From: an uncultured Chloroflexia bacterium
Lineage (GTDB): Bacteria > Chloroflexota > Limnocylindria > Limnocylindrales > CSP1-4
Assembly: GCA_963833225.1 (NCBI GenBank)
Contig: CAWHXD010000007.1
Location: 128,001 to 192,000, forward strand
Length of the DNA stretch: 64,000 nucleotides
Reading direction: 5' to 3'
Part shown: positions 46,122 to 63,611 of the stretch, piece after piece
Position numbering within the stretch: the stretch's first letter is position 1
Layout: each line of letters starts with the position of its first letter
The notes under the pieces: model-generated
Database searches by the model: none
What the model was told of the DNA's origin: nothing
The model's input: the letters and a program-made list of their open reading frames with translations, nothing else
Position numbers and translations under genes: made by a program

Positions 46122-47726
46122 TCAGCCGCCCGGGTCGAGCGGCTCGAATGGGGCCGGTGGCGACGACTCCGCGATCGCCCGCTCCAGCTCGCGGTCGAGC
46201 CGGATCTTGGTCAGGACGAGGAACATCACCACGGCAAGGATGAGGGCCAGCACGATGATCATGGCTTGGCGCCGGAACACGCTCTGGTCGATCTTGGAGG
46301 TCGCCAGCTCCGTCGCCCCCTCGGCCTTGGCCTTGGCGTCGCTGGCCAGCTTGGCCACCTCGGTGAGCTTCGTGGTGTGGACGGCGGCCTGGGCCTGGAT
46401 CAGGCTCGTCTTGGCGCTGACGAGGGCCGCCTCGGCATCGTCGGTGATCATGCCCAGGCCGGCCGCGCTCTGGATCGTCTGGTCCGCCGCGTCGTAGGCG
46501 TCCTGGGCCGAGACCACGGCGGCGGAGATCCCCTCGATCTGCGTGTAGATCTGCGATTCGGGGTGGTGGCACGTGTCACAGCGCCGGTCCGCCGGGTCCG
46601 CGAAACGGCTGAGCTCGAGGCGCAGCCGGTGCGTTCCGAGGTCGTGGCAGGTCGCGCAGCTGTAATCGGGTGCCTGCGGATGGAAGAACAGGGCCGAGCT
46701 CGGCTGCGAGACGTCGTGCGTGCCGTGGCAGGTCCAGCACTTGGGGGCGGCGGCCTGGAGCTCGGAGTGGCGGCTCTGCTCGTACAGCGCCTGGGTCGCG
46801 GTGTGGCACTTGCCGCACACGTCCACGACCGTGCTCGACGTGGGCGGCTTGGCATCGTGCGAGCCATGGCACGAGGCGCAGCTTGGCGCGCGCACGTCCT
46901 TGTTCTCGAGGAGGGCGACCCCGTGAACGCTCTTGGAGTAGATGTCGAACTGGTCGGTGGGGATGCCGTACGGCTCCATCCGCTTGGCGTCGGCATGGCA
47001 CCCCGCGCACAGGTTCGGGATGTTGAGGGCGAACACCTTGGCGCTCGGGTCGGACACCTTCTTGACGTCATGCGCGCCATGGCAGTCGGTGCAGACCGCG
47101 ACCCGCGTGTCGCTTGCGGTCAGCAGGCGCTGGCCGTGGACGCTGGACCAGTACTTGGCGTACTGGTCGGTGGGCAGGCCTGAGACGCCCATCCTCTCCA
47201 CGCTGGCGTGGCAGCTGCCGCACAGGGCGACCGACTCGAGGCGCCCCGGGGTCCCCGAATAGCCGGCGCCGGCGTCCATGGCCTTGGTGATCTGGTCGCT
47301 TCCCGGATCACCGCCGTGGCAGTCCGCGCAGGTCACGCCGGCGGCGGCGTGCGCGCTCGAGTCCCACTCGGCGACGATGGCCGCCTGCTTGTCGTTCACC
47401 GCGCCATGGCAGTCCGCGCAGCCGTTCAGGCCGCCGCCATCGGGGTGGGCCACGGGCGTCGGCAGCGGCGGGGCGCTCGCGGCCGGCTCGGTCGGCGAGG
47501 GCTCCGGGGTGGCGAACAGCCACCCGTTGTCCGAGGCGCCGGGCGTGGGGACCACGGGCGTGGTGGCGGAGGGGCTGGGGTCCGGCACGGTGCCGGGGCT
47601 CGGGCTCTCGGCGGATGCCGAGAACGCGACCAGCATCCAGGTGGTCAGCGCCACCGACACGGTCACGCCGAGGCGGACGGCCCGGCGGAGCGAGGTGGAG
47701 GTTCGGAGCTCCCGGTCAGCGCTCAT
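46122..47726 (-). CDS. Decaheme c-type cytochrome with signal peptide, coiled coil and C-terminal TM anchor
   Basis: 10 CxxCH motifs: CADCH x2, CGSCH, CTDCH, CAGCH, CASCH, CGKCH, CWTCH, CATCH and CDTCH. C-terminal MIIVLALILAVVMFLVL. Start MSADREL 2 nt after the cytochrome b stop. Confidence 0.92.
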   Translation of the reverse strand: MSADRELRTSTSLRRAVRLGVTVSVALTTWMLVAFSASAESPSPGTVPDPSPSATTPVVPTPGASDNGWLFATPEPSPTEPAASAPPLPTPVAHPDGGGLNGCADCHGAVNDKQAAIVAEWDSSAHAAAGVTCADCHGGDPGSDQITKAMDAGAGYSGTPGRLESVALCGSCHASVERMGVSGLPTDQYAKYWSSVHGQRLLTASDTRVAVCTDCHGAHDVKKVSDPSAKVFALNIPNLCAGCHADAKRMEPYGIPTDQFDIYSKSVHGVALLENKDVRAPSCASCHGSHDAKPPTSSTVVDVCGKCHTATQALYEQSRHSELQAAAPKCWTCHGTHDVSQPSSALFFHPQAPDYSCATCHDLGTHRLRLELSRFADPADRRCDTCHHPESQIYTQIEGISAAVVSAQDAYDAADQTIQSAAGLGMITDDAEAALVSAKTSLIQAQAAVHTTKLTEVAKLASDAKAKAEGATELATSKIDQSVFRRQAMIIVLALILAVVMFLVLTKIRLDRELERAIAESSPPAPFEPLDPGG

Positions 47727-47728
47727 CG

Positions 47729-48805
47729 CTAGCTCACATACCCCCAGACGGTGAGGGCGACCAGCCCCAGGAGGACGAGCGTCGCCACGCCCACGACGAG
47801 CTTTCGACGGCGGATCAGGACCTCCGGGCTTCGATCGAGGAACGGCCAGACGACGAGGAGCCCGATGCCCACGATGGGGACCATGATCCCGACCAGCTTG
47901 TCCGGGATGAGCTTGAGCAGCTCGTACACGCCGAGGTAGTACCACTCGGGTTTGGTGTGGGCGGGCGTCTGGAGCGGGTTCGCCTGACCCTCGAGACCGG
48001 CCGGGAACAGCGAGGCGAGGATCACGAGCACCGCGAGGATGATGTACCAGGCGATCAGCTCGTCGATGATGTAGTGCGGGAAGAAGGGTCGCAGCGGCTC
48101 GCGGTCGTGCTCGGGGCTCGGCACCTTCGGCTCGGGGCGCTTGGGGTTGGCCAGCCCGAGCTGGTGCACGAGGACGAGATGCCCCGCGAGGAGGGCACCA
48201 AGCGCCAGCGGCAGCACCAGGACGTGGATCCCGAAGAACCGGCTCATGGTGTCGCCGGTGACGTCGGCGCCGCCCCGCAGCAGCAGGAGCAGCGGCTCGC
48301 CGATCAGCGGCACGCCGCCGGCGATCTCGGTGCCAACGACGGTCGCCCAGTACGCGCGCTGGTCCCATGGCAGCAGGTATCCGGTGAACCCGAACCCGAG
48401 GGTCACCATCAGCAGCAGGCAGCCCACCACCCAGGTGAGCTCGCGCGGGTACTTGTAGGCGGCCTGGGCGAACACCCGCACGAGGTGCAGCGTCACGAAC
48501 AGGATCATCAGGTTGGCGGTCCAGTGGTGGATGGACCGGATCAGCCAGCCGAAGGTGACATCGCTGGTGATGAACTGGACGCTTTCGAACGCGGCGTCGG
48601 GGGTGGGCTTGTAGTAGAGCGACAGCAGGGTGCCGGTGACCACCTGGATGCCGAACAGGAACAGGGCGATCCCGCCGAAGTAGTAGGTCCGGGCGGACAT
48701 CGGGATCCGGACGTGCAGGCTCGCCCGCAGGACAGGGCCGAGCCCCGTCCGTCGTTCGAGCCAGCTTGCCTGCCCCTGGGGCTCGGTCACCGGACGGGTC
48801 GCCAT
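47729..48805 (-). CDS. Cytochrome b of a bc-type complex (b6 and subunit IV fused)
   Basis: WLIRSIHHW..N......LH, TGYLLPWDQ.AYWA, RFFGIH...LAGHLVLVH and KPEWY. Confidence 0.95.
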   Translation of the reverse strand: MATRPVTEPQGQASWLERRTGLGPVLRASLHVRIPMSARTYYFGGIALFLFGIQVVTGTLLSLYYKPTPDAAFESVQFITSDVTFGWLIRSIHHWTANLMILFVTLHLVRVFAQAAYKYPRELTWVVGCLLLMVTLGFGFTGYLLPWDQRAYWATVVGTEIAGGVPLIGEPLLLLLRGGADVTGDTMSRFFGIHVLVLPLALGALLAGHLVLVHQLGLANPKRPEPKVPSPEHDREPLRPFFPHYIIDELIAWYIILAVLVILASLFPAGLEGQANPLQTPAHTKPEWYYLGVYELLKLIPDKLVGIMVPIVGIGLLVVWPFLDRSPEVLIRRRKLVVGVATLVLLGLVALTVWGYVS

Positions 48806-48806
48806 C

Positions 48807-49301: not shown

Positions 49302-49461
49302 CGACGCCTCCACCTCGCCTGGCAGCCGCGTGCCAGCGCGCCTGCCCCTGGGGTGGATTGTGATGGCGGCGGGCATCGCATCAAACCCATGAGTCGATAC
49401 AGAACCCTCGCCGGCCCCTATGCCAAATGGCACCCCTGGGGGCGCCGATCGGCTCCCAACG

Positions 49462-51153
49462 TCAGCCCCCGGGCGACAGCGGCCACGCCAGCCCGAGGGG
49501 CGGATCGTCGACGATGCCCTCCTGCGGCCCATGGGAGCCCGGCGTCGTCACCGGGAGCACCGGGTTCGCGTGGCAGCGCGCGCAGGACACGGGTTGGTGG
49601 CAGTACGCGCAGGCCTGGTTGCCCTGGGTGCGGATGACCTGGGCATGGTTCGTGAGCATGGTGTCGTGGTCCACGCTCACGGCGCCCGTCGAATGGCAGT
49701 TCACGCAGTAGTCGCGGGCGTGGCACTCGCCGCACGACTGCCCGCCCGGATCCAGGCTGATGGCCACGTTCTTGTGGTTGAACACCCACAGCGTGTCGTC
49801 GGTGTGCGTGCTGGGCGGTTCGCCCAGTGGCAGGCTGGCAACCGCTGGACCGATCTGCGGGAAGGTGTGGCAGGTGTTGCAGGTCGACGGGATCGTCTCC
49901 GTGGTCGCCACGCCGTTGACGACCTTGAGATGGCCGCCGTCGTGGCACCGGAAGCAGCCCGGCCAGTCGAGGTGGCCGATGTTGCTGGCGTATGTTGCCG
50001 CGGTGACCTTCATCGCGGGCGTCGCGGTCAGCCGGTAGAGGACCCTGAGCTCGTCCTCGGCAACCGCGATCTGGGCGCCCTTCGTGGCGTAGACCTCGGG
50101 GTAGTTGGCCTTGTAGAACGTGCCGAGCTTGTCAATCTCGGCGTCGGCGGTCGCATCGTCCGGGAACGCGGCCCACAGGATCCGCATCCCCTCGCGCTTG
50201 ATATACGGCAGCGAGGGGTCGATGGCGCCGGTTGAGAGCTTGTAGTCGAGGTTGGAGCGCGGGTTCTGGATGTCGTGACCTACCCGGTTGTGACAGTCGT
50301 AGCAGCTGAGCGTGATGTTGCGCTCGGTGGCCTTGAGGGCATCGATGTTGGCGCGCACGTCGTCCGCCACGGTGACCTTGTCCTGGGCGATGTACTCGAC
50401 GACGGTCCCGTCGTCGCGGGTCGAGGTGACGTAGTCGATCACGGCCGAGTTGGCGTCGGGCGACGTGTAGGTGAACTGGGAGAGCACGTGCCAGTGGACG
50501 CTGCGACCGACATCGAACGCGTCGCCGCCCGCCGGACGAATCATCAGGCCCACGAAGTCGCGAGTGTTCGCCTCGTCCTCCTGGAACTGGGTCTGGGCGC
50601 GCAGCGCGACGAACGACCGGTCATTGAGAGAGTGGCATTTCTGGCACGTGTCCGACGGGCTGGGAAGGAGCTGGTGGTCGGGCGGCTCGATCGGCGTCGG
50701 GTACGTGTTGAGGACCACGCTGACCAGCTGGCGCGTGCCGGCGAGCTTGGACTTGACCCAGCCCACGACCCCGGGTTCCACGTGGCACTCGCCGCAATCG
50801 ACATCGCGGTGTGAGCCGAGGTGATACGCCTCGAGCTCGGGAGCCATGGTGTGACAGCGCCCGCAGAAGTCGGCCGTCTCGGTCCATTGGATCATCGTGA
50901 CGCCCGTGAACGCCACGACGCTGCCCCCGGCAGCCAGGACCAGCAGCAGGGCGAACAGGCCGGCCCTCGAGCGCGGCAACCGGAGGTGACGGCCACGGAG
51001 GTAGAACGGGTGCCCCGGGCGGTGTCCCCGGGCTGGCTCCGCGGCCGGCGGCTCCGCGGCGGCGGGCTCCTCCGGCGGCATCCCGTCGGCGGTCTCCCGC
51101 GTCGTCTCCTCGGTCTCCGGCGGAAGCCCGGCGCCGCCCTCGGGGTCGCTCAT
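49462..51153 (-). CDS. NapC/NirT-domain (ImcH-like) membrane-anchored decaheme cytochrome
   Basis: One N-terminal TM; FCGRCH..MAPE, CGECH.EPG..GWVKSKL.G..QL, CQKCH, HWH, CYDCHNR, GCFRCHD and CNTCH, plus CGECH, CVNCH, CAYCH and CARCH. Confidence 0.9.
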   Translation of the reverse strand: MSDPEGGAGLPPETEETTRETADGMPPEEPAAAEPPAAEPARGHRPGHPFYLRGRHLRLPRSRAGLFALLLVLAAGGSVVAFTGVTMIQWTETADFCGRCHTMAPELEAYHLGSHRDVDCGECHVEPGVVGWVKSKLAGTRQLVSVVLNTYPTPIEPPDHQLLPSPSDTCQKCHSLNDRSFVALRAQTQFQEDEANTRDFVGLMIRPAGGDAFDVGRSVHWHVLSQFTYTSPDANSAVIDYVTSTRDDGTVVEYIAQDKVTVADDVRANIDALKATERNITLSCYDCHNRVGHDIQNPRSNLDYKLSTGAIDPSLPYIKREGMRILWAAFPDDATADAEIDKLGTFYKANYPEVYATKGAQIAVAEDELRVLYRLTATPAMKVTAATYASNIGHLDWPGCFRCHDGGHLKVVNGVATTETIPSTCNTCHTFPQIGPAVASLPLGEPPSTHTDDTLWVFNHKNVAISLDPGGQSCGECHARDYCVNCHSTGAVSVDHDTMLTNHAQVIRTQGNQACAYCHQPVSCARCHANPVLPVTTPGSHGPQEGIVDDPPLGLAWPLSPGG

Positions 51154-51160
51154 GGGAGCC

Positions 51161-51760
51161 TCAGTTCAGGATGGCCGCGACGGCGCGGGCCATGTCGTCC
51201 TTGGACAGCGCCCCGATCCGCACCTCGCGGATCCTCCCGTCGGCGCCGATGAAGAAGTGGGTCGGGATGCCCATGGACCGGTATGCGGCGGCCACGTCCG
51301 CATTCGGGTCAACCGCGATCGGGAAGCTGAGGCCCGCCCGCTGCGCGTACCCGGCGACATCCGCGGCCGGCTCGTTGATGAACACGCCCAGGACCACCAG
51401 GCCCTGCTCCCGGTTCGCCTCGTAGGTCGCCTCGACGTCGGCCGACTCGGTCCGGCAGTCCGGGCACCAGCTGGCGCCGAACGTCAACCACACGGGCTTG
51501 CCCGCGTAATCCGAGAGCGACACGGTTTCGCCGTTGTAGGTGAGCGCGGTGAAGTCCGGCGGAATCTCGCCGGCGGTCGGGGCGACCGCGGCGGCGTTGT
51601 CCGGCAGCTTGACCTGTGTGACGCCGTCGGTCATGCCGGCGCCGCTCGCCGACCAGGCCAGCACGCCCACGATGACGGCCACGATGACGATGACAACGAT
51701 GGTCTGCAGCCGACCGGCGAGATACCCGGAGGACCGGGTGCCCATGCCTGCTGCGGTCAT
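51161..51760 (-). CDS. ResA/TlpA-like membrane-anchored thiol-disulfide oxidoreductase
   Basis: TM segment; PDF, LSDYAGKPV, ASWCPDC and GIPTHFFI. Confidence 0.9.
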   Translation of the reverse strand: MTAAGMGTRSSGYLAGRLQTIVVIVIVAVIVGVLAWSASGAGMTDGVTQVKLPDNAAAVAPTAGEIPPDFTALTYNGETVSLSDYAGKPVWLTFGASWCPDCRTESADVEATYEANREQGLVVLGVFINEPAADVAGYAQRAGLSFPIAVDPNADVAAAYRSMGIPTHFFIGADGRIREVRIGALSKDDMARAVAAILN

Positions 51761-51788: not shown

Positions 51789-52865
51789 TCAGCCCAGGCC
51801 GGAATAGCTGTGGAGGCCGCTGAAGATCAGGTTGCCGAAGTACGTGAGCAGCGTCGCGAGGAACCCGATCACCAGCATCCAGGCCGCCCGGTTGCCCCGC
51901 CAGCCGCGCATCACCCGCGCATGGAGGTAGGCGCCGTAGATGAACCAGGTCACCAGTGACGCGGTCTCCTTGGGGTCCCACTGCCAGTAGCTGCCCCACG
52001 CGGTCTCGGCCCACACGGCGCCGAGGATGATGGTCAGGGTGAGGAACGGGAATCCGACCACGACCGCGCGGTAGCCGATCTCGTCGAGGACCATCGGCCT
52101 GGGGAGGCCCCAGCGCCCGCTGGAGGTCTCGGCGGCGGCGTCGCGGCCCCGCTTCGTGAACCAGTCCAGCACGGCCATCGCGACCAGCGCGATCCCCGTC
52201 GCGACCATGGCGTATCCGAACGCCTGCTTGTCCGCGTCCGCACCCCCGGTGAACGCGCCGACGAGCGCAGCGACGACGCCAACGGTCGTCGTGAGCAGCA
52301 CCGCGAGCGCATGGCGGGTCTGGAGCAGGAACAGGTAGGAGGCGGCGAACGCGATGGCGAACGAGCCGTAGGCGACGATCGCGGTGGCCACATGGACGGT
52401 GAGCAGCAGGTTGTTCTGGAGCGCGGGGAGGAGGGGCTCGATTTCGGCCGGGATCGTGAACGCGTAGAGGAGCATGCCCAACGCGACCGGCAGGGCGACG
52501 AGCGCCAGGATCCGCTGGTGGTACTTGCGCTCGAAGTAGAGGTAGGTGACGAGGACGCCGAAGGCGAACGCCATCGAGAACTCGTACATGTTCGCGAACG
52601 GCCCGTGACCGGTGACGATGGCCCGGAAGGTCAGGCTCAGCAGGAGCGCGAGCGTCGCGAGCCAGGTCAGGATGGTCGCGTACTTGCCCATGGCCGCCGT
52701 CCGTGGCCCGGACACGAGCCCGACAGGGCCGGTGGATACCGACGGGCCGGCCGTCTGCATCCGGGCCGCCCGCAGGCCGGAGACCGCGTAGACGAGGTAC
52801 ATCAGGAGCGCGAGCCCCGTCGCCAGCATCGAGGCGATGAACGCGTACTCGGAAACCTTGCCCAT
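51789..52865 (-). CDS. ccsA: Cytochrome c biogenesis System II heme ligase CcsA/ResC
   Basis: GHGPFANMYE, LLTVHV, GAVWAETAWGSYWQWDPKET (WWD motif) and GLHSY. Confidence 0.95.
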   Translation of the reverse strand: MGKVSEYAFIASMLATGLALLMYLVYAVSGLRAARMQTAGPSVSTGPVGLVSGPRTAAMGKYATILTWLATLALLLSLTFRAIVTGHGPFANMYEFSMAFAFGVLVTYLYFERKYHQRILALVALPVALGMLLYAFTIPAEIEPLLPALQNNLLLTVHVATAIVAYGSFAIAFAASYLFLLQTRHALAVLLTTTVGVVAALVGAFTGGADADKQAFGYAMVATGIALVAMAVLDWFTKRGRDAAAETSSGRWGLPRPMVLDEIGYRAVVVGFPFLTLTIILGAVWAETAWGSYWQWDPKETASLVTWFIYGAYLHARVMRGWRGNRAAWMLVIGFLATLLTYFGNLIFSGLHSYSGLG

Positions 52866-52879: not shown

Positions 52880-54340
52880 TCAGGCCTTGGTCGGCGCGCT
52901 CAGCGCCGCCCGGATGTCGGAGACAAGAAGTTCAAACTCGGTGCCGGCCGTGACGTCCTTCTGGGCGAGGGTCGCGAGACCCACCACGGCGCCGCCGTTG
53001 GGCCGGCTCACGATGCGAGCCCAGAGCCGCTTGTGCGGGATGGTGAAGCGGATGAGGAACCCGACGAACAGGAGGGCCGAGCCGATCCAGATGAACGGCA
53101 CACCCGGGTCACGGACCACGTTCAGCCAGGTGAATTGACTCTCGCGCTCGAAGGTGACCGTCAGGTCGCCGACCTGGGCGGGGGCGCCCTGGTCGATGAC
53201 GGCCGCGGCGGTGAAGCTGTTGGCGCCGGTCGTGTAGATCCCGAACTGGACCTGGCCGGGCTTGATGAGCGGGTCGCTGCCGCCGGTCGTCGCCTGGATC
53301 TCGGCGCTGAACGCCGTGTTGGGGATCGGGATCTCGCCAAAGCGGGCGCCGTCGGGAGTCTCGCCGGTGAGCGGTACGCCGGCGGACTGGAGCAGCACCT
53401 CGCCCTGGGCGTTCTTGACCGTCACCAGCACCGACGGGCCGAACGAGGCCTGGTAGAAGGCGAGGCCGTTGTAGCGGTACGGGTCGTTGACGCGGACCAC
53501 GTGGCTGTCGATCTCCGCGCCGTCCTTGTAGACGACGATGGTGCTCGCGTAGTCGATCGGGCGACCGGTGGCGGGGTCGTACTTGTCGGTGAAGTCCAGG
53601 AGCTGGATCGCGAGGCCGGGCTCGGCGGCCACGTCGACGGTCTGGCCCTCGGTGATGAAGAAGTTGGGATCCCGGTAGCTGGTCGCGCCCAGGATCGCTC
53701 CCGCGATGATGACCACGATGGCCAGGTGGGCGGCGAGGCCGGCGAACGGGGCCCAGCGGAAGCGGTCGGCGTACAGGTGGACCGTCCCATCATCGGTCGA
53801 CAGCGTCCGGTAGCGGCGCGCCCGGATCACCCCCTCCAAGACGGACCGCGTCTCCTCGGCGGACCGACGGACCACGATGGCCTCGTGCTGGGGTGCGTGC
53901 TCGAAGAACGCGGCGCCCACGTCCACGCGCGGGTTGCGGATCGTGCGGATCATCCCCGGGATCCGGTGGATGGAGCAGGCGATCAAGCTGATCGTCAACG
54001 CCGCCGCGAGCACGCGGATCAGGTACGAGTTGAAGACGTTGAACAGGCCGAGCGCGTTGATGATGTCCGTCCAGCCGCCGTAGCGGGGGCGGACGCTGTC
54101 CACCCAGAGGGCCTCCTGCGGTGCATTTCCCACGATCTCGCGCGGCATCTGCATCAGCAGCGAGCCCAGCACGCCCAGGACGGCGATCACCAGCATGATG
54201 ACCATGGCCACCCGCATCGACGTCAGGAAGCGCCACAGGCCTTCCAGCACCATGTCGACGCGATCCATCGCTGATGGGCCGGCCGCCGCCGCCGTCGGGG
54301 CGGACGGGGGAAGCATCCGGCTGTCGACCTTGTCGGTCAT
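52880..54340 (-). CDS. resB: Cytochrome c biogenesis protein ResB/CcsB
   Basis: FLTSMR.A, SLIACS, AHLAI, RVNDP.RY.G..FYQASF and DPG...IW.G. Confidence 0.92.
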   Translation of the reverse strand: MTDKVDSRMLPPSAPTAAAAGPSAMDRVDMVLEGLWRFLTSMRVAMVIMLVIAVLGVLGSLLMQMPREIVGNAPQEALWVDSVRPRYGGWTDIINALGLFNVFNSYLIRVLAAALTISLIACSIHRIPGMIRTIRNPRVDVGAAFFEHAPQHEAIVVRRSAEETRSVLEGVIRARRYRTLSTDDGTVHLYADRFRWAPFAGLAAHLAIVVIIAGAILGATSYRDPNFFITEGQTVDVAAEPGLAIQLLDFTDKYDPATGRPIDYASTIVVYKDGAEIDSHVVRVNDPYRYNGLAFYQASFGPSVLVTVKNAQGEVLLQSAGVPLTGETPDGARFGEIPIPNTAFSAEIQATTGGSDPLIKPGQVQFGIYTTGANSFTAAAVIDQGAPAQVGDLTVTFERESQFTWLNVVRDPGVPFIWIGSALLFVGFLIRFTIPHKRLWARIVSRPNGGAVVGLATLAQKDVTAGTEFELLVSDIRAALSAPTKA

Positions 54341-55111: not shown

Positions 55112-56358
55112 GGCGTTGTGGTCTCGGCCGGCGACGTCTCTGGGGACGCAGCCGGGGAGGTCTCCGGGGAGGCCTCAGGGCTTGCCGACGGCGCGGCGCT
55201 CTCCGCTGCCCCCGAGGCTGCGGGCAGCATGGAGGACGCCGCGAGCGAGTCCAGGTGGGACCTGACGGTCTGGGCAAGATCGGAGCTGGGGTCGAGCTCG
55301 ATGACCTTGTTCCACTCCGCTTGGACGCCGGCCCAGTCGGGGACGGCCTGGTTCAGGTACAGGAAGCCCAGGTCGTAGTGGACCTCGACGTTGTCAGGCT
55401 TCAGCGCGACGACCCTGTTCCACGCCGCCTCGGCGTTGGTGATGTCGTTGAGGTTGAAGTAGACCGCGCCGCGGGCGAGGAGCGCCTCGATGTGATCTGG
55501 GTTGATCGCGAGCAGCTTGTCGAGCCAGGTGGCCGACTGGTCGTACAGGCCGCCTGCGTAGAACTCGTCCGCCAGCGCGAGCAGGGTCTCCTGGTTGGTC
55601 GGGTCTGCCTGGTAGGCGGCCATCAGGTCTGCGACCTTCGCCTCGTCCACGGCGGGAGCGGCTGATGTGGCCTGCGCGACCTGGCTGGCCGCGGGAGTGG
55701 CACCGCCCAGGTTGTTGACGAGGGCATTGATGCCGAACAGCAGACCCCCGACCAGGCCAATGCCCACGACACCCAGGAACAGGCCCTTCCAGACGTTGGC
55801 CGGTGCCGGCTGGGCGGGAGTCGCCACGGCGGCGGCGGCCCGGGCCGAGGACTTCGTGCGGCGCGGTGCGGGTGCTGGCTGCGCGACGGGCCTTGCGGGC
55901 CTGCCCTTTGGCTTCATGTCGTCGTGGACGCTGGGGGTCACCATCGCATACAGGGCCGCGAGGTCCTCCGCGCTTGGATCACCCTCGATCTCCAGGTCGG
56001 CGTCGTCCATGGCTTCGGCGACGGGCTCCTCCGGGACCACCGCCGGGGCGGGGCCCCGGCGGGCCGGAGGTGTCGCCGGCCCGCCGGGTACGACCGTCGG
56101 CGGACTCGCCGGGCTCATGAGGGCCGAGCCCTCGAGTCCGACCGGGTCGGTCAAAGCGATAAACGCCGCATCGAGGGCCGCGACCTGGGCACGGGCCCAG
56201 CCACGAATCTCGGGCGGCGCAGCGGCAAGGAACTCGCTCGCGGCCTGGTGGAGCCGGTCAACGTCCTCGGGGGATGCGCTGGCCGGCAATCCGAGCCGGG
56301 ACAGCAGCTCGACCTGGACGGCGGCCTGCCCCGTGGGCTTGAGCGTGGGGACGGTCAT
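55108..56358 (-). CDS. Membrane protein with a J-domain-like N-terminus and extracytoplasmic TPR repeats
   Basis: N-terminus LGLPASASPEDV...ALDAAFIALTDP, Pro/Ala linker, one TM segment and TPR-like helices; ATGA overlap with ccdA. Confidence 0.8.
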   Translation of the reverse strand: MTVPTLKPTGQAAVQVELLSRLGLPASASPEDVDRLHQAASEFLAAAPPEIRGWARAQVAALDAAFIALTDPVGLEGSALMSPASPPTVVPGGPATPPARRGPAPAVVPEEPVAEAMDDADLEIEGDPSAEDLAALYAMVTPSVHDDMKPKGRPARPVAQPAPAPRRTKSSARAAAAVATPAQPAPANVWKGLFLGVVGIGLVGGLLFGINALVNNLGGATPAASQVAQATSAAPAVDEAKVADLMAAYQADPTNQETLLALADEFYAGGLYDQSATWLDKLLAINPDHIEALLARGAVYFNLNDITNAEAAWNRVVALKPDNVEVHYDLGFLYLNQAVPDWAGVQAEWNKVIELDPSSDLAQTVRSHLDSLAASSMLPAASGAAESAAPSASPEASPETSPAASPETSPAETTTP

Positions 56359-56617: not shown

Positions 56618-58885
56618 TCAGGGAACCACCGGGTAGTCATACCCGTAGGCGGTGTGCGCCTTGCCGTGGCAGACGAGGGTGCACGTGCCCATGGAGGTCG
56701 GTGTCGCGGGCTGGAACGTGATGGCCCCGCCGAGCTTCTGGACGTTTGGCGCGAAGTTGACCAGGCCCGTTGCCGGCGTCTGGCCGTTGACCGCGAGCGC
56801 AGACCCATGGATCCGGAAGTGGCACTCGGCGCAGATGGCGTTGCCCCGGCCGGCACCGGCGACGTCGATGTCCAGGGTGCCAGTGCCGCTCCCGACGATG
56901 GAGCTCAGGTGGTAGCCGTGAAAGCTGAAGGCCGTGTCACTGCGAATGTCACCGCTGTCGTCCACCATGGGGGCCTCGGCGTGGCAGACGTAGCACAGCG
57001 CGAAGTCCGCTGCCTGATATCTCCCTGGGACCTTCAGGGTCCGGTCAACGTACGGCGCGATCAGGATTCCCCGGTTGGGCGAGGCGTGATTGTCAAGGCT
57101 CGCGTCGGCCAACGGTCTCGGGGCCTGCGTGGTCACCGCGCTGTTCCCGTGGCAATTCTCGCAGCGGACGGTGTCCTGAGTCTCGAACACCCACAGCTTG
57201 TAGGGGGACGTTCCCGCCAGGCTCAGGGCCATGGCGTTGGTCTGGTTCTTGCCGGCGGCTTCCACGGGGTGGTAGGAGACGTTGGCCGGGTTCAGCTCGA
57301 TGCCCTTGTCGAGCGACCAGCGGCTCGGGTGGGCCGCATCCTGGGCCGGCAGCTCCGTGAAGCCCGAGTGGCACTTGAAGCAGAGCTGGTACTCGAAGTC
57401 GGACGTCTGCTGGAGCGTATAGGCGGGGGCCGTGCCGGCGTCGCCGTTGACGACCGCGACCCCCGACGCGCCGGCGATGGAGCCCGATGCCGACCAGCCG
57501 CCGACGCTGTTCACCGGCCTCGCCGCGTCGGCGAGGTGCGGTTGGTGGCAGTCGGCGCACGCCGCATGCCGGTTGAGCGTGTCCTGGAACTCGTTGTCCT
57601 GGGCCGATTCGTGGCTCGAGGGCGAGGTGGCCGGGTGCGAGTACCAGGACGCGGTCGCGGCGTCGTTGGCGGGCAGCGTCGCGCTCGACCACTGGCTCTG
57701 GACATCGCTCAGCGCACCCGTGCCGTCGTGACACAGGAAACACGTCGACGACTGAGGCCCGGGCTGCTGGAGGAAGTTCAACCCCTGGGCGTCGTGGGCC
57801 GCGTGGCAGGAAGCGCAGGTGTCCGAGGCGAGCCCCGAGATGACATGCGGCGAACCCTCAGCGGCAACGGCCGCGACCGGCGCGGTCGAGCCGATCTGGG
57901 GGTTCAGCTTGTAGAGCGGGACGGGCTCGTCCACGAGCTTGCCCTTCCGCTGTCCGGGTGACAAATCGACATCGGGCTTGGCGCCCATGACCAGCTCCGC
58001 CCTGGCTCCCGGCAGCGAGTCGGATCCGCTCGCCAGGCGGAATCGGTAGCCCGTCTCCCAGGCCGCGTCGACGGTGGCCCGCACGGCGAACTCCACCTCG
58101 GTGAAGCTGTGGGCAGGAAGGACCAGGGCCGCGAGTTGACGGCCGGCGCTGGCAGCGCCCTCCACGGGGCTTGCCAGCGGATCGCCCGCCTCCTCCAGGC
58201 GCAGGTCCGCGACGCTGATCGGCGCTCTCCGTGGATCAAAGACACGGCCATCGTCCGAGGCGCCGTAGAACGCCGTGGCGGGCTCGGGGTCGACCATCGG
58301 GAGCATCGTCCAGCCGCCGGCTTCCCCGGCCATCTCCAGGACCGGCTCGATCGTCGTGTCGGTGTCGGTGGCGTTGACGATCTGGAACCGGACACGGTAG
58401 ACGGTGAACCGCTGGGCCTCGTCGAGGGGAGCGTCAAGCTCCCCCGGGTCCGTCACCGTGCCGCCGTCGTTGACGATGTCGATCCACGTGTGATCGATGC
58501 GCGGCCCGGTTGGCTCGGGGGTTGTGGTGGGCTCCGGCGTTGCGGTCGGCTCGGGGGTCGTGGTTGGCTCCGGCGTTGCCGTCGGCTCCGGCGTCGCGGT
58601 GGGCTCGGGCGTTGCGGTCGGCTCCGGCGTCGCGGTGGGCGTGGGCGCCGCCCTGGGGACGAACGTGGCCGGTGGGGCCGGTTGGGGCGTGGGCGTCGCG
58701 GCCGGCGCGATCGACGGCGTTGGCGTGGGTTCCTGGGCCAGGACGGCCGGAACGGCCGGAGTCAGCGCTCCCACCGCGCCCGCGATGACGAGGAGCACGC
58801 CGAACAGCGGCCCGGCCCGGTGGCCTGCGGGTTGCTGCTGGCGGTTCATGCTGCTGAGATCTTCGTCATGGCGGATGTCGGACAT
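56618..58885 (-). CDS. Secreted octaheme cytochrome with a Pro/Thr stalk and a heme-free N-terminal domain
   Basis: Signal peptide; 7 PT(A/T)TPE repeats; CASCH, CFLCH, CADCH, CFKCH, CENCH, CYVCH and CAECH, plus terminal CTLVCH. The start may instead be 58850. Confidence 0.9.
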   Translation of the reverse strand: MSDIRHDEDLSSMNRQQQPAGHRAGPLFGVLLVIAGAVGALTPAVPAVLAQEPTPTPSIAPAATPTPQPAPPATFVPRAAPTPTATPEPTATPEPTATPEPTATPEPTTTPEPTATPEPTTTPEPTGPRIDHTWIDIVNDGGTVTDPGELDAPLDEAQRFTVYRVRFQIVNATDTDTTIEPVLEMAGEAGGWTMLPMVDPEPATAFYGASDDGRVFDPRRAPISVADLRLEEAGDPLASPVEGAASAGRQLAALVLPAHSFTEVEFAVRATVDAAWETGYRFRLASGSDSLPGARAELVMGAKPDVDLSPGQRKGKLVDEPVPLYKLNPQIGSTAPVAAVAAEGSPHVISGLASDTCASCHAAHDAQGLNFLQQPGPQSSTCFLCHDGTGALSDVQSQWSSATLPANDAATASWYSHPATSPSSHESAQDNEFQDTLNRHAACADCHQPHLADAARPVNSVGGWSASGSIAGASGVAVVNGDAGTAPAYTLQQTSDFEYQLCFKCHSGFTELPAQDAAHPSRWSLDKGIELNPANVSYHPVEAAGKNQTNAMALSLAGTSPYKLWVFETQDTVRCENCHGNSAVTTQAPRPLADASLDNHASPNRGILIAPYVDRTLKVPGRYQAADFALCYVCHAEAPMVDDSGDIRSDTAFSFHGYHLSSIVGSGTGTLDIDVAGAGRGNAICAECHFRIHGSALAVNGQTPATGLVNFAPNVQKLGGAITFQPATPTSMGTCTLVCHGKAHTAYGYDYPVVP
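58512..58640 (-). repeat. 18-bp coding tandem repeat (PTATPE/PTTTPE x7)
   Basis: Seen in both the translation and the DNA (ggctc(c/g)ggcgt(t/c)gc.gt.). Confidence 0.85.
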
Positions 58886-59036: not shown

Positions 59037-59048
59037 ACGCGTTGGACG

Positions 59049-60278
59049 TTACGGAAGGACCGGGACCGGCGTCGGGCCGACCTGGGTTCCTGCCTGGATC
59101 GTTCCCGTGGGATCGTGGCAAAGCTGGCACGTTCCACGGTTGTCGGCCTTGAGCAGCCGGCTGTCGCCGACCGGCGCAACGGCCCCACCCGGCATCTCCT
59201 GGTTGGCCGAGAAGGTGCCCGGCATCTGCGCGTTGGAACCATGCGACACGTGACACGTGATGCAGTTCCGCGACGTCGCATCGGAGGTGTGGCGATACGT
59301 GAAGATCGCATCGTCTTCCAGGGTGGTCCGGCCGTTGCCCAGATACCGGGAGTGGCACGTGAGGCACCACGCCGCGATCTGGGGCCCGAAGGTCGCGGAC
59401 TGGCCGTTCGGCGCGTCGTTTGCCGTGCCGCTCGTCCCGTTCCACGGAACCTTCTTCCGGAAGTAGTCGCCCGCCGTCGACGGCAGGCTGAGCGCGGCAA
59501 CCTGGCTCGCGAGGAGCGTGTTGGTGCCGTTCAGGGTCTGGATGATGGTGTAGTTGCGGGTGTCGCCGGCCGGCGGAAGCGCCGCGTCGGTGACGAATGC
59601 CTCCACGGCCGCCGGCTCGAACACGTCCGTGCCCGCAGCGGCGGGATCCGGGATCGGATTCAGGATCCGATACTGGCCGTTGCCGTGCGGGTTGTGGCAC
59701 GTGCCGCACTCGAGCTCGACATCGGGTCCGGCATAGGCGGTGGTGCTGTTGGGGCCGTTGCCCCAGGCCACGCCTTCCGCCGCCCCGACCACGCCGCCCA
59801 CGTTGGGCAGGTGGGCAGAGGTGACGTCCTGCGATCCGGCCGTCCGGACGGGCACCTTGGCGTTCTCGGAAATCCTGGTGCCCGTGTCGTAGGCGATGCG
59901 GACCGCTTCACCGGAACCGATCCGGGCGGTGACGAAGCCGCCACCGCGGGTATATCCGAGGACAGTGTCTCCGCGGGGATCGGTGGTGCCAAGCGTGTAC
60001 TGCATCCCGTCCTCGACGTCAACCGTCGAGCCGAGACTCGTCGCGCCGTGGCAGGTCAGACACAGCGCGACCCCCGAGTCGGCAACGAGCAGGGTGCCGT
60101 TGCCTTCGGAGCTCTGCGCCCGGTGGGCGCGATGGCAGCCGGCGCAACCGTCGGCATTGATGCCGTTGACGCCGCTGTTGTTCGCAGCCACGTGCGGTCC
60201 ACCGTCCGCGAAGACCGGGACCGCGGCAAGGAACAGCCAAAGACTTCCGGCTGCAATGAGCAGCATCAGCTTCTTCAA
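59049..60278 (-). CDS. Secreted hexaheme c-type cytochrome, OmcS-like
   Basis: TTG start with GAAAGGAGGTGA SD; Sec signal peptide (VFA-D); CAGCH, CLTCH, CGTCH, CLTCH, CITCH and CQLCH plus six additional His; no anchor. Confidence 0.9.
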   Translation of the reverse strand: MKKLMLLIAAGSLWLFLAAVPVFADGGPHVAANNSGVNGINADGCAGCHRAHRAQSSEGNGTLLVADSGVALCLTCHGATSLGSTVDVEDGMQYTLGTTDPRGDTVLGYTRGGGFVTARIGSGEAVRIAYDTGTRISENAKVPVRTAGSQDVTSAHLPNVGGVVGAAEGVAWGNGPNSTTAYAGPDVELECGTCHNPHGNGQYRILNPIPDPAAAGTDVFEPAAVEAFVTDAALPPAGDTRNYTIIQTLNGTNTLLASQVAALSLPSTAGDYFRKKVPWNGTSGTANDAPNGQSATFGPQIAAWCLTCHSRYLGNGRTTLEDDAIFTYRHTSDATSRNCITCHVSHGSNAQMPGTFSANQEMPGGAVAPVGDSRLLKADNRGTCQLCHDPTGTIQAGTQVGPTPVPVLP

Positions 60279-60382
60279 ACTGTCCTCACCTCCTTTCTCT
60301 GTGTGCTACGTGGACTTGATGGGTGCCGCCGTGGTGCGGCGGCGGCGCAGAGTCTCGGTTCCACCTCCCTCGCTGTCAGTGC

Positions 60383-61468
60383 TCAATAGCTCCACAACTG
60401 CACGCGATTGTTGCCCGAGTCGGCGATGTACAGCCGCCCGCGCTCGTCAACCGAGATGCCGTTGGGGTAGGAAAACGCTCCATTGGCGACACCCTGTGAG
60501 CCGAAGGAGCCCAGATAGTCGAGGCCGGTCGCGCCCTCCTCGTACCGTCCGTACACGAAGACCGCCTGGCCGCTCGAGTCCACGACGTACACGCGCCCCT
60601 GCCCATCGATGGCCACGCCGCGCGGAAGGCCGAGGTTTCCGGTGCCCGTGCCGCGGCCGACCGTGGCGACGGTGTTCCCGTCCTGCGCGAACACCAGCAG
60701 GCGTCCGTTGTTGCTGTCGGTCACGTACGCGTAGCCGGCGTCATCGATGGCCACCCCGTTGGGGAAGTTGAGACCGGAATCCTGGCCGAACACGCGGATC
60801 TGCTGACCGGACGGGTCGAACTCGCGGACGCGCTGCGGAAGGCTGCCCACGTCGGTGACGAACAGGTTGCCGGCGGCATCGAAGGACACGCTCAACGGCT
60901 GCCAGCCCTCGGCATCGGCCGGTGGCGTGAAGGTGCGAAGGTACGTCCCGGCTGCGTCGTAGATGTAGATCGAGGACGTGGGCCGATCGGAGACGTAGAC
61001 CTCGCCGCTGAGCGGGCTGATCGCGACGTAGATGGGCACATGGTCCGTTCCGGTGGAGATCGGAGGCAGGAGCGCGGCCAGCTGGTTGCCCCCGGCGTCG
61101 AACAGCCGTGCAGTCTGGTCGCCGGATGTCTCGCCGATGTAGATGCGGTCGCCGGTGCTGGTCACGGCGACGCTCATCGGGCGTGAGGCGCCGTAGATCG
61201 AGGTGACGTACCCCGGCATGACCGTCTCGCCCGGGATCGTCGGGATCACCGAGATGGGCTGGCGGAACAGGAGGTACCAGATCGCAAGGCCGAGAAGGAC
61301 GATGAACGCCCCCAGCAGCAGGAGCAGGAGCAGGAGCTTCCGGCGCCGACGCTCCTCGGGCTCCGCCTCGGTGTCCACGGGAGCGAGGCCGTCGGGCGGC
61401 AGCTGATCGCCCTCGGGGAGTGGTTGCGAGCCCGCCACCGGCTGGGCCGCGGGACGGGACGCGGTCAT
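60383..61468 (-). CDS. Membrane-anchored NHL-repeat beta-propeller protein
   Basis: RRRRK then a TM segment; repeated (F/L)..P.G(V/I)A(I/V)D..G..YV.DS.N.R motifs. Confidence 0.92.
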   Translation of the reverse strand: MTASRPAAQPVAGSQPLPEGDQLPPDGLAPVDTEAEPEERRRRKLLLLLLLLGAFIVLLGLAIWYLLFRQPISVIPTIPGETVMPGYVTSIYGASRPMSVAVTSTGDRIYIGETSGDQTARLFDAGGNQLAALLPPISTGTDHVPIYVAISPLSGEVYVSDRPTSSIYIYDAAGTYLRTFTPPADAEGWQPLSVSFDAAGNLFVTDVGSLPQRVREFDPSGQQIRVFGQDSGLNFPNGVAIDDAGYAYVTDSNNGRLLVFAQDGNTVATVGRGTGTGNLGLPRGVAIDGQGRVYVVDSSGQAVFVYGRYEEGATGLDYLGSFGSQGVANGAFSYPNGISVDERGRLYIADSGNNRVQLWSY

Positions 61469-62451
61469 CAGTTGCTTCCTTCAGGATTGGTCGACGGCCC
61501 GACGGCGGGGTGCGCCTGCGTGCCATCGGAGACGCGGCTCAGGCCGAGCTGCGCGGGCTTGTTCTCGGCGTCGAGCTCGAGCGCCTTGCGGTACCAGGTG
61601 GTCGCGGTGATGTCGTCGCCCTGGCTTTCGGCGAGCAGCCCCAGCCCGATGCGGGCATCGAGCGCGGCATCGCCGTCGGCAATGGCCTCCAAGCGCTTGA
61701 TCGCGCCGTCAACGTCGCCGGTCTGGCCCGCGACCATCGCGTTGGCCCACTCCGCGAAGGCGGTGTCGCCGGTTGCGGTGTAGGCGGCCGCGAGCGTCTG
61801 GTACGGGTCCGGCCAGCCGAGCGGGACGAAGCTGATCGCCATGCGGAGGGGTTCGATGGCCTTCTCGGGCGTGCCGACCTGGACGTACGCATCGCCGAGC
61901 AGGTTCATCGCGTCGGCGTCGGTGCGCTGGATGGCGAGCGCCTTCAGCAGGTAGTCGACGGCTTCCTGGGGTCGTTCCTGCTGGAGGGCGATGTCTCCCA
62001 GCCCGTAGTACGACGTCTGGAGCATCGGGTCGACGTTCGCCATCTCGTTGGCGGAGGCGATCTCGATGACCTTGGTGTAGTCCGCCGCCGCCGCGTCGAG
62101 GTCGCCCTTGATCTCGTATGCCTGGCCGCGGCTGACGTAGGCGGCCTCGTTCTGCTTGCCGGTCCCGATGATCTCGGTGTACTGGGCGATGGCATCGTCG
62201 AAGCGGTTGGCCGCGAGGTAGATATCCCCGAGCCGTCCCCGCGACGCGAGGTCGGCCGGATCCGCCCGCACGGCCTCCTCGAGGGCGGCCAGCTCCCGGT
62301 CCAGGATCGGGGCTGCCGGGGCGCGGAAGCGGTCGACGGCGTAGAACGCGACGAACGCGATGAGGACAACCACGAACAGCAGCGCGATCCGCTTGATCCA
62401 GCGGTTCAGCTCTGCCTCCGGCATGTTGGTCAGGGACGTGACCCGGGACAT
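61468..62451 (-). CDS. Membrane-anchored TPR protein
   Basis: N-terminal TM followed by multiple TPR-like repeats; TGATG coupling to the NHL gene. Confidence 0.88.
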   Translation of the reverse strand: MSRVTSLTNMPEAELNRWIKRIALLFVVVLIAFVAFYAVDRFRAPAAPILDRELAALEEAVRADPADLASRGRLGDIYLAANRFDDAIAQYTEIIGTGKQNEAAYVSRGQAYEIKGDLDAAAADYTKVIEIASANEMANVDPMLQTSYYGLGDIALQQERPQEAVDYLLKALAIQRTDADAMNLLGDAYVQVGTPEKAIEPLRMAISFVPLGWPDPYQTLAAAYTATGDTAFAEWANAMVAGQTGDVDGAIKRLEAIADGDAALDARIGLGLLAESQGDDITATTWYRKALELDAENKPAQLGLSRVSDGTQAHPAVGPSTNPEGSN

Positions 62452-62658
62452 TCTTGGCACCTTCACTCCACGGCCGGCGGATTTGGACGGACCGACCTCT
62501 CGCCATGATCGCGTGCGCGAGGCAATGTTCCCATCCGTCGAGGGATAGAACTGAGATACAGGGCGGTGCCCTGGTGCACCACGATCTCTGTATCCAGCGG
62601 CTTCACGGGCCCGGTTTGACGGGCCATTGGTCCCATTCCGACCATGCGTCCGCACCGA

Positions 62659-63195
62659 TCAGGCGGGCAGCGATTCCCTGGGCGTCTGGAAGTCGCCTGG
62701 CACGTCCACCTCGATGATGTCGCCGGCGAGCCGGACCGGAAACCGGTTGAGTGGTCGCGGTGGCGGACCGGCCAGGACAGCCCCGTCGAGGGCGAACTGG
62801 CCGTCGTGGCAGCGACACTTGAAGCGCGCCCCTTCCGTGGACCACTCATACCGGCACAGGCCATGGGTGCAGCGAGGGTCAAACGCGGTCAGCTCGCCCG
62901 ACGCCTTCCGGACCAGCCAGGTCGAGCCCGGCACACTGGTGGTCCCGGAGACCAGCGTGAACGGCACCTCGACCGGCGTCCCCGGGACGAGCGTATCCGG
63001 GTCCACGTCCAGGGTCAGGGTGACGGGTGGCGCCGCACAGGCCTCGAGGAGCACGCCCAGCCCGCCGCCAGCCGCGAGGGCACCGGCGCCCATGAGCAGC
63101 AGCATTCGGCGGCGGGGCACCGGTGTCGCGCCCGGGTCGAACGTCGCGCGTGGATCGTACGCCGGCGGGTCATGCCGGCGGAAAGAGTCGCCCAT
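62659..63195 (-). CDS. Stand-alone Rieske [2Fe-2S] protein, probable Tat lipoprotein
   Basis: PRRRMLLL...LEAC; CTHGLC, CRCHDGQF and GPPPRPL. Confidence 0.88.
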   Translation of the reverse strand: MGDSFRRHDPPAYDPRATFDPGATPVPRRRMLLLMGAGALAAGGGLGVLLEACAAPPVTLTLDVDPDTLVPGTPVEVPFTLVSGTTSVPGSTWLVRKASGELTAFDPRCTHGLCRYEWSTEGARFKCRCHDGQFALDGAVLAGPPPRPLNRFPVRLAGDIIEVDVPGDFQTPRESLPA

Positions 63196-63206
63196 GGAGC
63201 GACAGC

Positions 63207-63611
63207 CTATCCGGTCAGGCCCGCTGGCTGCACGGTGTGCTCGGGATCCGCATTCGCCGCGCCGGCAATGGCCTCGCGGATCGTCGCCAGGAAATCGTCG
63301 GGCCGGCTGGACAGGGACTGGCGGCGCAAGGTGAACGCGCTGGTGGTGTTGATGTCCACGTCGAGCACCAGGGAGGCATGCGACCGGCGGACGATATCGG
63401 CGGCATCGACGGCGCCGCCCTCCTCCACCACGACCACCTGCGGCTCCGTGGCCAGGGCAATCGCGACAGCCGCTTCCTCGGAGATGTCCACCGCCTCGAC
63501 CGTCACGCCCGATTCGGCCGCGAGCATCCGGCCAAGGCCCTCCCCCATCAGGGGATGGCTGTACAGGACGAGAACTCTGACCAGCTCAGGGCACAACGTC
63601 GTGCTCTCCAA
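63207..63611 (-). CDS. Degenerate receiver (REC)-like single-domain protein
   Basis: VRVLVLYSHPLMGEGLGRMLAAE...PQVVVVE resembles the NarL-type REC start but lacks the DD pocket and the phospho-Asp; no output domain. Confidence 0.6.
   Translation of the reverse strand: MESTTLCPELVRVLVLYSHPLMGEGLGRMLAAESGVTVEAVDISEEAAVAIALATEPQVVVVEEGGAVDAADIVRRSHASLVLDVDINTTSAFTLRRQSLSSRPDDFLATIREAIAGAANADPEHTVQPAGLTG

Follow-up and report, generated by a model that had tools for sequence, protein, structure and literature searches.

A conserved multiheme cytochrome operon without a barrel gene in Limnocylindria (Chloroflexota), predicted to encode an extracytoplasmic electron conduit

Gene content of the multiheme cytochrome operon

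The window analyzed in this study, a stretch of 64,000 nucleotides from contig CAWHXD010000007.1 (C7) of an uncultured Chloroflexota bacterium, contains at positions 46122-63611 a cluster of 15 genes, all located on the minus strand and separated by gaps of 1-259 nt or overlapping by 1-4 nt, which encode four multiheme c-type cytochromes together with two Rieske proteins, a cytochrome b and a cytochrome maturation system. The locus is a real, conserved operon. With a probability of roughly 0.55, the features of the encoded proteins suggest that it specifies a self-contained, outward-directed extracytoplasmic electron conduit of a monoderm bacterium, resembling a cytochrome nanowire cassette without the outer-membrane barrel.

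Both Pfam and NCBIfam analyses backed the gene assignments listed below, with the exception of the receiver-like gene, which had no Pfam match. The original prediction, made from the DNA letters, of 15 co-oriented genes for two Rieske proteins, cytochrome b, a CcdA-ResA-ResB-CcsA set, an NHL propeller, two TPR proteins and cytochromes with 34 heme motifs (10+10+8+6) was thereby borne out, the number of motifs including one conserved CX3CH in the octaheme cytochrome MHC8. No gene for a beta-barrel protein was found by Pfam among the 15 genes. The G+C content at third codon positions of the 15 genes is 0.79-0.95, and that of the whole window is ~70% G+C. The genes are given in the direction of transcription, followed by the neighboring genes; C7 coordinates refer to the whole contig (window 63881 is C7:191881).

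63207-63611, minus: receiver-like protein of 134 amino acids (aa), first gene of the operon; no Pfam match, weak NCBIfam matches to NarL-family N-termini (E-value (E) 2.4e-4)
62659-63195, minus: Rieske1, exported [2Fe-2S] protein; PF00355, E 6.8e-10; twin-arginine signal
61468-62451, minus: TPR1, membrane-anchored; Pfam TPR families; one N-terminal transmembrane (TM) segment
60383-61468, minus: NHL-repeat beta-propeller with N-terminal membrane anchor; PF01436, E 5.6e-30; TM segment 45-63
59049-60278, minus: MHC6, secreted hexaheme cytochrome; 6 CXXCH; Sec signal
56618-58885, minus: MHC8, octaheme cytochrome with membrane anchor; 7 CXXCH + CX3CH; TM segment 27-45
55108-56358, minus: TPR2, bitopic; TPR families, weak TPR_CcmH_CycH match; TM segment 192-210
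54356-55111, minus: CcdA, thiol reductant transporter; PF02683 (DsbD_TM/CcdA)
52880-54340, minus: ResB/CcsB, System II heme handling; PF05140, E 6.2e-65
51789-52865, minus: CcsA/ResC, System II heme lyase; PF01578 (Cytochrom_C_asm); TIGR03144, 234 bits (cut-off 187.6)
51161-51760, minus: ResA-type membrane-anchored thioredoxin; AhpC-TSA and Redoxin; ResA subfamily match below cut-off; TM segment 20-38
49462-51153, minus: MHC10a, membrane-anchored decaheme cytochrome; 10 CXXCH; PF03264
48807-49376, minus: Rieske2, membrane-anchored; PF00355; weak PetC TM-anchor match; b6f-type NCBIfam matches below cut-off
47729-48805, minus: cytochrome b, fusion of b6-like and subunit-IV-like parts; PF00033 (2.9e-53) and PF00032 (2.9e-18)
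46122-47726, minus: MHC10b, decaheme cytochrome with N-terminal signal and C-terminal TM anchor; 10 CXXCH; c7/c3-type Pfam matches
45179-46051, plus: FdhD, convergent, beyond the end of the operon; conserved frame
C7:193199-193972, upstream, outside the window: NarL-type response regulator (Pfam, NCBIfam)
C7:193863-195779, upstream, outside the window: GAF histidine kinase (Pfam, NCBIfam)

The operon ends at 46122, because the adjoining gene is the convergent fdhD. A minus-strand open reading frame at 44902-46008 was considered as a sixteenth gene and rejected, the overlapping plus-strand FdhD frame being better conserved (83% vs 75%).

Conservation of the operon

A scan of species-representative genomes identified 156 relatives, and the best 80 of these 156 provided the 76 loci on which the locus counts are based. 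The best 80 all carry Chloroflexi-type labels, except for one Actinomycetota and three Anaerolineaceae, and nearly all relatives belong to Limnocylindria (Chloroflexota). The Chloroflexota lineage proposed originally was confirmed: near homologues are named Candidatus Limnocylindrales, Candidatus Limnocylindria and Chloroflexi RBG_16_72_14, by which the genome is assigned to the class Limnocylindria.

When synteny was compared across the relatives, ten core genes, namely those for TPR1, NHL, MHC6, MHC8, TPR2, CcdA, ResB, CcsA, ResA and MHC10a, were all present in 44 of the 53 loci with enough flanking sequence. The CcdA match was missing in the other nine, three of which did not have the whole downstream set within reach. 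The locus is not a product of chance, because the ten core genes recur in this manner and every heme Cys and His is kept in 9 to 68 homologues. The NHL gene was present in 68 of the 70 loci having at least 1.3 kb of sequence upstream of the hexaheme gene, both TPR genes keep their synteny across related loci, and the MHC6 gene is often tandemly duplicated in relatives. Among the 47 loci with 10 kb of upstream sequence, the receiver-like gene was found in 46, the histidine kinase in 45, the response regulator in 46, and Rieske1 in 42.

The three genes at the 3' end behave differently. The Rieske2/cytochrome b/MHC10b module follows MHC10a in some loci, lies upstream instead in loci L051, L053, L061, L063, L080 and L084, and is absent after MHC10a in L020, L022, L029, L041 and L085, where FdhD directly adjoins MHC10a. 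This module is a variable add-on and not part of the core. The cluster had been described as self-contained, and it is indeed a compact operon with its own maturation genes; the locus continues upstream past the window to a histidine kinase and a response regulator (C7:193199-195779).

In this genome only, ~1.6 kb separates the two-component system from the operon, compared with ~0.15 kb in relatives. The extra sequence contains a plus-strand gene of ~270 aa with an XRE-type helix-turn-helix, flanked by an exact 20-bp direct repeat, which suggests that the stretch at C7:191881-193024 is a small insertion.

Of 151 genomes sampled from the class, 12 encode the hexaheme cytochrome (7 of 35 genera). 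Its profile matched 17 of 401 genomes across the phylum, and the matches that were full-length all fell within the class.

The secreted hexaheme cytochrome MHC6 and its relationship to OmcS

MHC6 has a cleavable Sec signal ending ...VFA/DGGPH and no anchor, and its six CXXCH motifs are accompanied by six further invariant His residues (H29, H52, H156, H198, H330 and H346) in 68 sequences. Single-sequence and shallow-profile searches of the PDB with MHC6 and MHC8 returned low-complexity or heme-motif matches only, and an ESM Atlas search with a locus cytochrome gave no more than generic "cytochrome c3 / paired CXXCH" clusters. With MHC6 as the query, 1,729 related clusters were found among 1.84 billion representatives. 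A deeper MHC6 profile, built from a 56-sequence alignment, matched OmcS of Geobacter sulfurreducens (6ef8_A) in the PDB (E 7.8e-4; 21.6 bits). In this match a single stretch covers three heme motifs with their flanks, and the other motifs are co-linear. The other matches of this profile were OmcE (E 0.017) and, through repeated paired-CXXCH motifs, MtrA (4e-5).

An AlphaFold2 model of MHC6, the second to be built, had a predicted local distance difference test score (pLDDT) of 81 and a predicted template modeling score of 0.80. Comparison of this model with OmcS by VIA-align gave Z 8.3 and a root-mean-square deviation of 4.6 A over 212 residues with 25% identity (model 45-391, OmcS 6-407). This result was obtained twice, once as a second look and once in a separate screen of 48,161 chains, of which only two reached Z>=2, OmcS (8.3) and MtrA (5.1). 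No match of MHC6 to OcwA, OmcZ or MtrC was found in the PDB profile and fold searches, a distant relationship being still possible, and the OcwA structure had no sequence or fold match in PDB searches with the locus cytochromes.

MHC6 is quite likely to be a distant homologue of OmcS, because both the sequence profile and the fold comparison point to OmcS over the full length. To this extent the link to Geobacter OmcS made in the original prediction was upheld, the part that stands being the OmcS-like character of the hexaheme subunit. The mature proteins are of comparable length (385 aa in MHC6 vs 407 in OmcS), contain six c-type hemes with co-linear motifs, and have in common the flanks SCHxPHG..YR, WCAxCHT and NCxxCHxAHxS. 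As in OmcS, CXXCHxxH follows heme 1 in MHC6; the second His of this motif is presumably the inter-subunit heme ligand in OmcS, and the equivalent residue of MHC6 is the invariant H52. MHC6 differs from OmcS (6EF8/6NEF) in a ~20-residue extra N-terminal arm with an invariant His.

By analogy with OmcS, it is possible rather than probable that MHC6 forms conductive filaments of the OmcS type, with the tethered MHC8 as the site of nucleation and the electrical connection through the wall, and the anchored NHL and TPR proteins as assembly factors. A complex prediction of an MHC6 dimer with four hemes scored 0.09 against a mark of 0.42, and weighs neither way. Four relatives of MHC6 (P0137, P0143, P0148 and P0155), with lengths of 700-870 aa, are each matched by the profile in 3-4 places, a pattern suggestive of fused tandem OmcS-like units.

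The octaheme cytochrome MHC8

MHC8 consists of an N-terminal anchor, a Pro/Thr-rich linker of ~90 aa that matches PT repeats, a non-heme domain of ~200 aa and a C-terminal heme domain. All eight heme motifs, including C735-x3-C739-H740 (CX3CH), and at least 10 extra His are conserved in 45 sequences. Alignment of the MHC8 and MHC6 profiles by hhalign gave a probability of 99.3% and E 2e-20 over hemes 1-3, and the paired-CXXCH domain of MHC8 matched OmcE (7tfs) in the PDB with E 1.1e-4. On the basis of the profile alignment, MHC8 is assigned as a membrane-tethered paralogue of MHC6.

Quinol-level modules

MHC10a (563 aa) contains one TM helix, and its first four hemes form an NrfH/NapC-type module. 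The MHC10a profile matched the NrfH structure 2j7a with E 7e-11 over the TM helix and heme domain, and its 10 motifs and 11 extra His are conserved in 38 sequences. The heme 1 motif is CXXCHxM, and M103 of this motif and K136, which are hallmarks of the menaquinol site of NrfH, are invariant in 38 of 38 sequences. MHC10a therefore resembles the NrfH/NapC/CymA proteins in its N-terminal TM helix, tetraheme head, CXXCHxM at heme 1 and conserved Lys, but its head is fused to six more hemes (563 vs ~160 aa) and it has no NrfA partner. MHC10a is predicted to work like NrfH, as a quinol-dehydrogenase head, and is called NrfH-like rather than NrfH because its score against the NrfH equivalog TIGR03153 (54.3 bits) is below the cut-off of 134.2.

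Rieske1 has an RRR motif and a probable lipoprotein Cys (LLEAC53), and C53, C109, H111, C114, C127, C129 and H130 are invariant in 44 sequences; the cluster ligands of Rieske2 are invariant in 12 sequences. The cytochrome b has seven TM-like segments and conserved His at 93/94, 107, 194 and 209. Its nearest NCBIfam families are ExtP of the Geobacter-type selenite/tellurite operon (231.6 bits, cut-off 290) and cytochrome b6. With four heme His, a subunit-IV part, CxH..CxCH and a disulfide Cys pair, the Rieske/cytochrome b pair fits the b6f type, the NCBIfam b6, ExtP and PetC matches all being below cut-off. MHC10b, in which 10 motifs and 10 extra His are invariant in nine sequences, has a C-terminal coiled region and a TM segment at 488-506, and is probably the c-type subunit of this module. 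The entry of electrons from the quinone pool that had been proposed originally is supported by the NrfH-like head of MHC10a and by the Rieske/cytochrome b genes.

None of the four cytochromes matched the NrfA, HAO or OTR families in Pfam or NCBIfam, apart from one hit to an OTR-family model below its cut-off (E 0.0093; 15 bits, cut-off 375); a fold test against catalytic multiheme enzymes covered MHC6 only. In all four cytochromes the candidate distal His are at least as numerous as the hemes, which is the pattern expected of bis-His electron-transfer hemes. Both observations favor a role of these hemes in electron transfer over a catalytic one.

Maturation, accessory and regulatory genes

The System II maturation set is complete, with CcdA, ResA, ResB/CcsB and CcsA/ResC all above Pfam cut-offs. 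TPR2, whose gene adjoins the maturation genes, consists of an N-domain in the cytoplasm and a TPR domain outside the membrane, connected by one TM segment, and probably functions as a chaperone of apocytochromes. The NHL gene is located directly upstream of the MHC6 gene, and the TPR1 stop overlaps the NHL start. An NHL propeller gene is likewise a neighbor of omcS in Geobacter, where the NHL protein GSU2505 has been proposed to function in the assembly or expression of OmcS (PMC9070056). NHL proteins are also contained in the cytochrome clusters of D. ferrophilus (PMC9769857).

The receiver-like protein encoded by the first gene has no DNA-binding domain. A DevS/DosS-type identity of the upstream kinase was rejected, the NCBIfam matches being only to the NarQ/NarX-type transmitter and below cut-offs.

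The host, its envelope and its respiratory context

The genome consists of 3.89 Mb in 20 contigs and is 86% complete and 3% contaminated. BamA (Omp85, PF01103), LptD (PF04453), LpxC (PF03331) and MtrB/PioB (PF11854) were not found in it, the control for PF11854 being uninformative; these absences are not proven, because the genome is only 86% complete. BamA (PF01103) was also found in none of five cluster-bearing relatives at least 94% complete. The claim that the cluster is porin-free was borne out within these bounds, and that of a probable monoderm host is supported. A host with a single membrane, as these marker searches suggest, fits the usual view of Chloroflexi (PMC5808234).

The genome encodes two heme-copper oxidases, one of them on contig C17 next to another cytochrome b and Rieske pair; a housekeeping bc complex beside an aa3-type oxidase is thus present outside the locus. 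Paralogues of the maturation genes were found outside the locus, CcdA on C17, ResB on C6 (28% identity) and CcsA on C8 (41% identity). Since a bc complex and a second System II set are present elsewhere, the locus is viewed as an accessory branch of respiration that has maturation genes of its own.

A syntenic second copy of the locus, with 50-78% protein identity to that on C7, was found on the 15.5-kb contig C18. This contig is 99.3% identical over 10.5 kb to a contig of the metagenome-assembled genome (MAG) of another species (L093); a paralogous origin of the copy was therefore rejected, and it is probably a binning contaminant. Additional multiheme frames in the genome were noted at C17:268638-270098 (7 CXXCH) and C19:382981-386912 (5 + 6 CXXCH).

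Proposed function of the operon

In the proposed outward conduit, menaquinol would be oxidized at the membrane by the NrfH-type head of MHC10a and, where the extra module is present, also by the b6-type Rieske/cytochrome b complex and MHC10b. Electrons would then pass along all-bis-His heme chains to MHC8, whose long Pro/Thr linker could span the wall, and from MHC8 to the secreted OmcS-like MHC6, which may be polymerized or coat the surface and would reduce an external acceptor such as Fe(III)/Mn(IV) minerals, humics or a partner cell. The anchored NHL propeller and TPR1 could serve as assembly or scaffold factors, like the role proposed for the NHL protein beside omcS in Geobacter, while TPR2 with CcdA, ResB, CcsA and ResA would form a dedicated heme-attachment line for the 34 hemes. 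The GAF-sensor NarL-type two-component system presumably switches the operon on. The carrier order, outward direction, surface exposure and polymerization are all inferred.

Several observations weigh against this proposal. The genome is 86% complete, and the distribution of the hexaheme cytochrome in the class is patchy (12 of 151 genomes). The link to OmcS is weak by each single measure: the profile E-value of 7.8e-4 is marginal; a first AlphaFold model of MHC6, built with 34 close homologues, had a pLDDT of 37 and was discarded; the second model was built without hemes; Foldseek placed OmcS first for MHC6, but with E 0.12 and a template modeling score of 0.22, which is not significant; and Z 8.3 is near the range of 7-8 where, according to VIA-align, unmatched models peak. 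Furthermore, the two heme-copper oxidases make inward flow to oxygen conceivable, and two Rieske centers suggest a fairly high-potential chain, which is a poor fit with low-potential Fe(III) oxides.

The last two points bear directly on an alternative in which the same hardware works inward, delivering electrons from Fe(II), Mn(II), reduced humics, a cathode-like mineral or a partner cell to the oxidases of the respiratory chain, with the quinol-level modules working towards quinone. Rieske centers would fit such a higher-potential chain, and the oxidases would provide its terminus. The closest architectural analogue with NHL, CcsA/CcsB and TPR proteins, the Uet cluster of Tenderiales, is assigned to electron uptake (bioRxiv 10.1101/2022.05.06.490989), and Ardenticatena maritima carries out both anodic and cathodic extracellular electron transfer (EET) (PMC5808234). 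The RuBisCO large subunit was not found in the 86%-complete genome, so that there is no sign of lithoautotrophy through the Calvin-Benson-Bassham cycle, and neither a cupredoxin nor a Cyc2-type oxidase was detected in the locus by Pfam or NCBIfam. As NrfH-type modules are, in addition, known as quinol oxidizers, inward flow is judged unlikely.

It is quite improbable that the cytochromes form an internal branch between membrane and wall, without transfer over long range or to the surface, and donate electrons to a terminal reductase, soluble or in the wall zone, whose gene lies elsewhere and whose substrates might be, for example, N-oxides, S-oxides, selenite or tellurite. NrfH and NapC normally serve periplasmic reductases, the nearest named family of the cytochrome b is ExtP of a selenite/tellurite reduction operon (below cut-off), and a NarL/NarQ-like regulator pair lies upstream, all of which would be in keeping with such a branch; a reductase gene, however, was found in or beside the locus in none of the 76 related loci, and a short shuttle would not need 34 bis-His hemes, a secreted subunit resembling OmcS, an NHL propeller and a cytochrome with a long linker. 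That the adjoining Rieske, cytochrome b and c-type subunit genes serve aerobic respiration as a bc-type supercomplex, a housekeeping quinol:cytochrome c oxidoreductase whose subunits are unusually rich in heme, is highly improbable, given the patchy distribution (12 of 151 class and 17 of 401 phylum genomes), the loss or displacement of the Rieske/cytochrome b part in many loci and the presence on C17 of a separate pair of cytochrome b and Rieske genes next to an oxidase gene.

Comparison with known systems

If the outward conduit is compared with characterized systems, the locus is most likely, from its gene content and by analogy, a nanowire cassette minus the barrel, plus a quinol dehydrogenase, a Rieske protein and, in some genomes, a Rieske/cytochrome b complex. 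The OmcE nanowire clusters, found in five diderm phyla, comprise multiheme cytochromes, beta-propeller lipoproteins, a subunit and a beta-barrel, with resB/ccsB and TPR genes nearby (PMC13712944). The cassette logic of the OmcE-type clusters of Desulfuromonadia, in which multiheme cytochromes, a propeller and a filament-type subunit occur with resB/ccsB and TPR genes nearby, is common to the Limnocylindria locus (PMC13712944), which differs in having no barrel, a TM-anchored propeller and a hexaheme rather than tetraheme subunit. With respect to OmcS, the difference is that the operon containing the MHC6 gene also encodes a quinol dehydrogenase and a maturation system, in a host without detected outer-membrane markers; an OmcS homologue has also been reported in a monoderm Coriobacteriales MAG (PMC7399161). 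The absence of a barrel gene likewise distinguishes the Limnocylindria cluster from the porin-cytochrome conduits (Mtr/Pcc/Ext).

The Tenderiales Uet cluster resembles the locus in being a single conserved block that encodes multiheme cytochromes and CcsA/CcsB along with two NHL proteins and an NrfG-like TPR protein, but Uet belongs to a diderm and includes the beta-barrel UetC, a peptidyl-prolyl isomerase and a cupredoxin (bioRxiv 10.1101/2022.05.06.490989). The concept of membrane, wall-spanning and surface multiheme cytochromes across a monoderm envelope is common to Thermincola potens, T. ferriacetica and Carboxydothermus ferrireducens (PMC6703420, PMC7829351), whereas the phylum and protein families of these Gram-positive EET chains differ from those of the Limnocylindria locus, and the cytochrome genes of C. 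ferrireducens are mostly scattered rather than placed in one operon (PMC7829351).

The original prediction that no characterized system of this kind is known in the lineage was overstated, since EET has been demonstrated in A. maritima 110S, a member of the Chloroflexi reported to be without BamA, presumed monoderm and having a surface multiheme cytochrome (PMC5808234). A. maritima belongs to another class, its candidate cytochrome is the heptaheme ARMA_0580, and the passages of that paper covered here describe no operon of such kind (PMC5808234). A preprint on multiheme cytochromes across the Chloroflexi supergroup, in the part available, concerns Anaerolineae only (10.1101/2021.08.23.457424). 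No description of such a locus in Limnocylindria was found in full-text searches of the literature, although supplements, such as the OmcS homologue lists of PMC7399161, might include Chloroflexota sequences. The locus is less unprecedented than originally held, yet it is a well-defined, conserved and testable system in a lineage that is abundant. New here are the probable relation of the hexaheme cytochrome to OmcS, the paralogy of MHC8 to MHC6, the NrfH-type head on a decaheme cytochrome and the variable Rieske/cytochrome b/decaheme module.

Limnocylindria (Ellin6529 / RIF-CHLX) are widespread in soil, aquifers and lakes, and their physiology is almost unstudied. If the operon is a working conduit, it would give these bacteria a role in iron, manganese and humic redox cycling and would be an example of a nanowire cassette from diderm Geobacter-type bacteria adapted to a wall-only envelope. 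Should MHC6 indeed form filaments, they would constitute the first cytochrome nanowire of a bacterial monoderm, encoded in one operon together with a quinol oxidase and a heme-attachment line of its own. The operon also lends itself to heterologous expression and structural studies, since it is compact and self-contained and unites a regulator, maturation genes, a quinol oxidase, a tether and an OmcS-like subunit.

Other features of the window and its surroundings

A single plus-strand frame of 1791 aa at C7:197232-202607 (L095:5232-10607) combines a molybdopterin oxidoreductase (formate-dehydrogenase-like) with NuoE-like, NuoF-like and GltD-like pyridine-nucleotide domains; the cytochrome operon lies between this formate-dehydrogenase-like frame and FdhD. 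Within the window, the plus-strand gene at 39250-40482 encodes a 410-aa protein in which a DoxD/DoxX membrane domain is fused to a C-terminal Rieske [2Fe-2S] domain, an unusual combination, and the minus-strand gene at 35295-38108 encodes a 937-aa protein with YDG and MBG domains, which is probably a large surface protein. At 7104-7719, with a barnase/barstar-like gene pair on one side and an RHS/YD-repeat-like gene on the other, there is an unbroken run of ~616 T. It is almost certainly an artefact of the assembly or the reads and accounts for the drop in G+C content to 0.485 in that bin.

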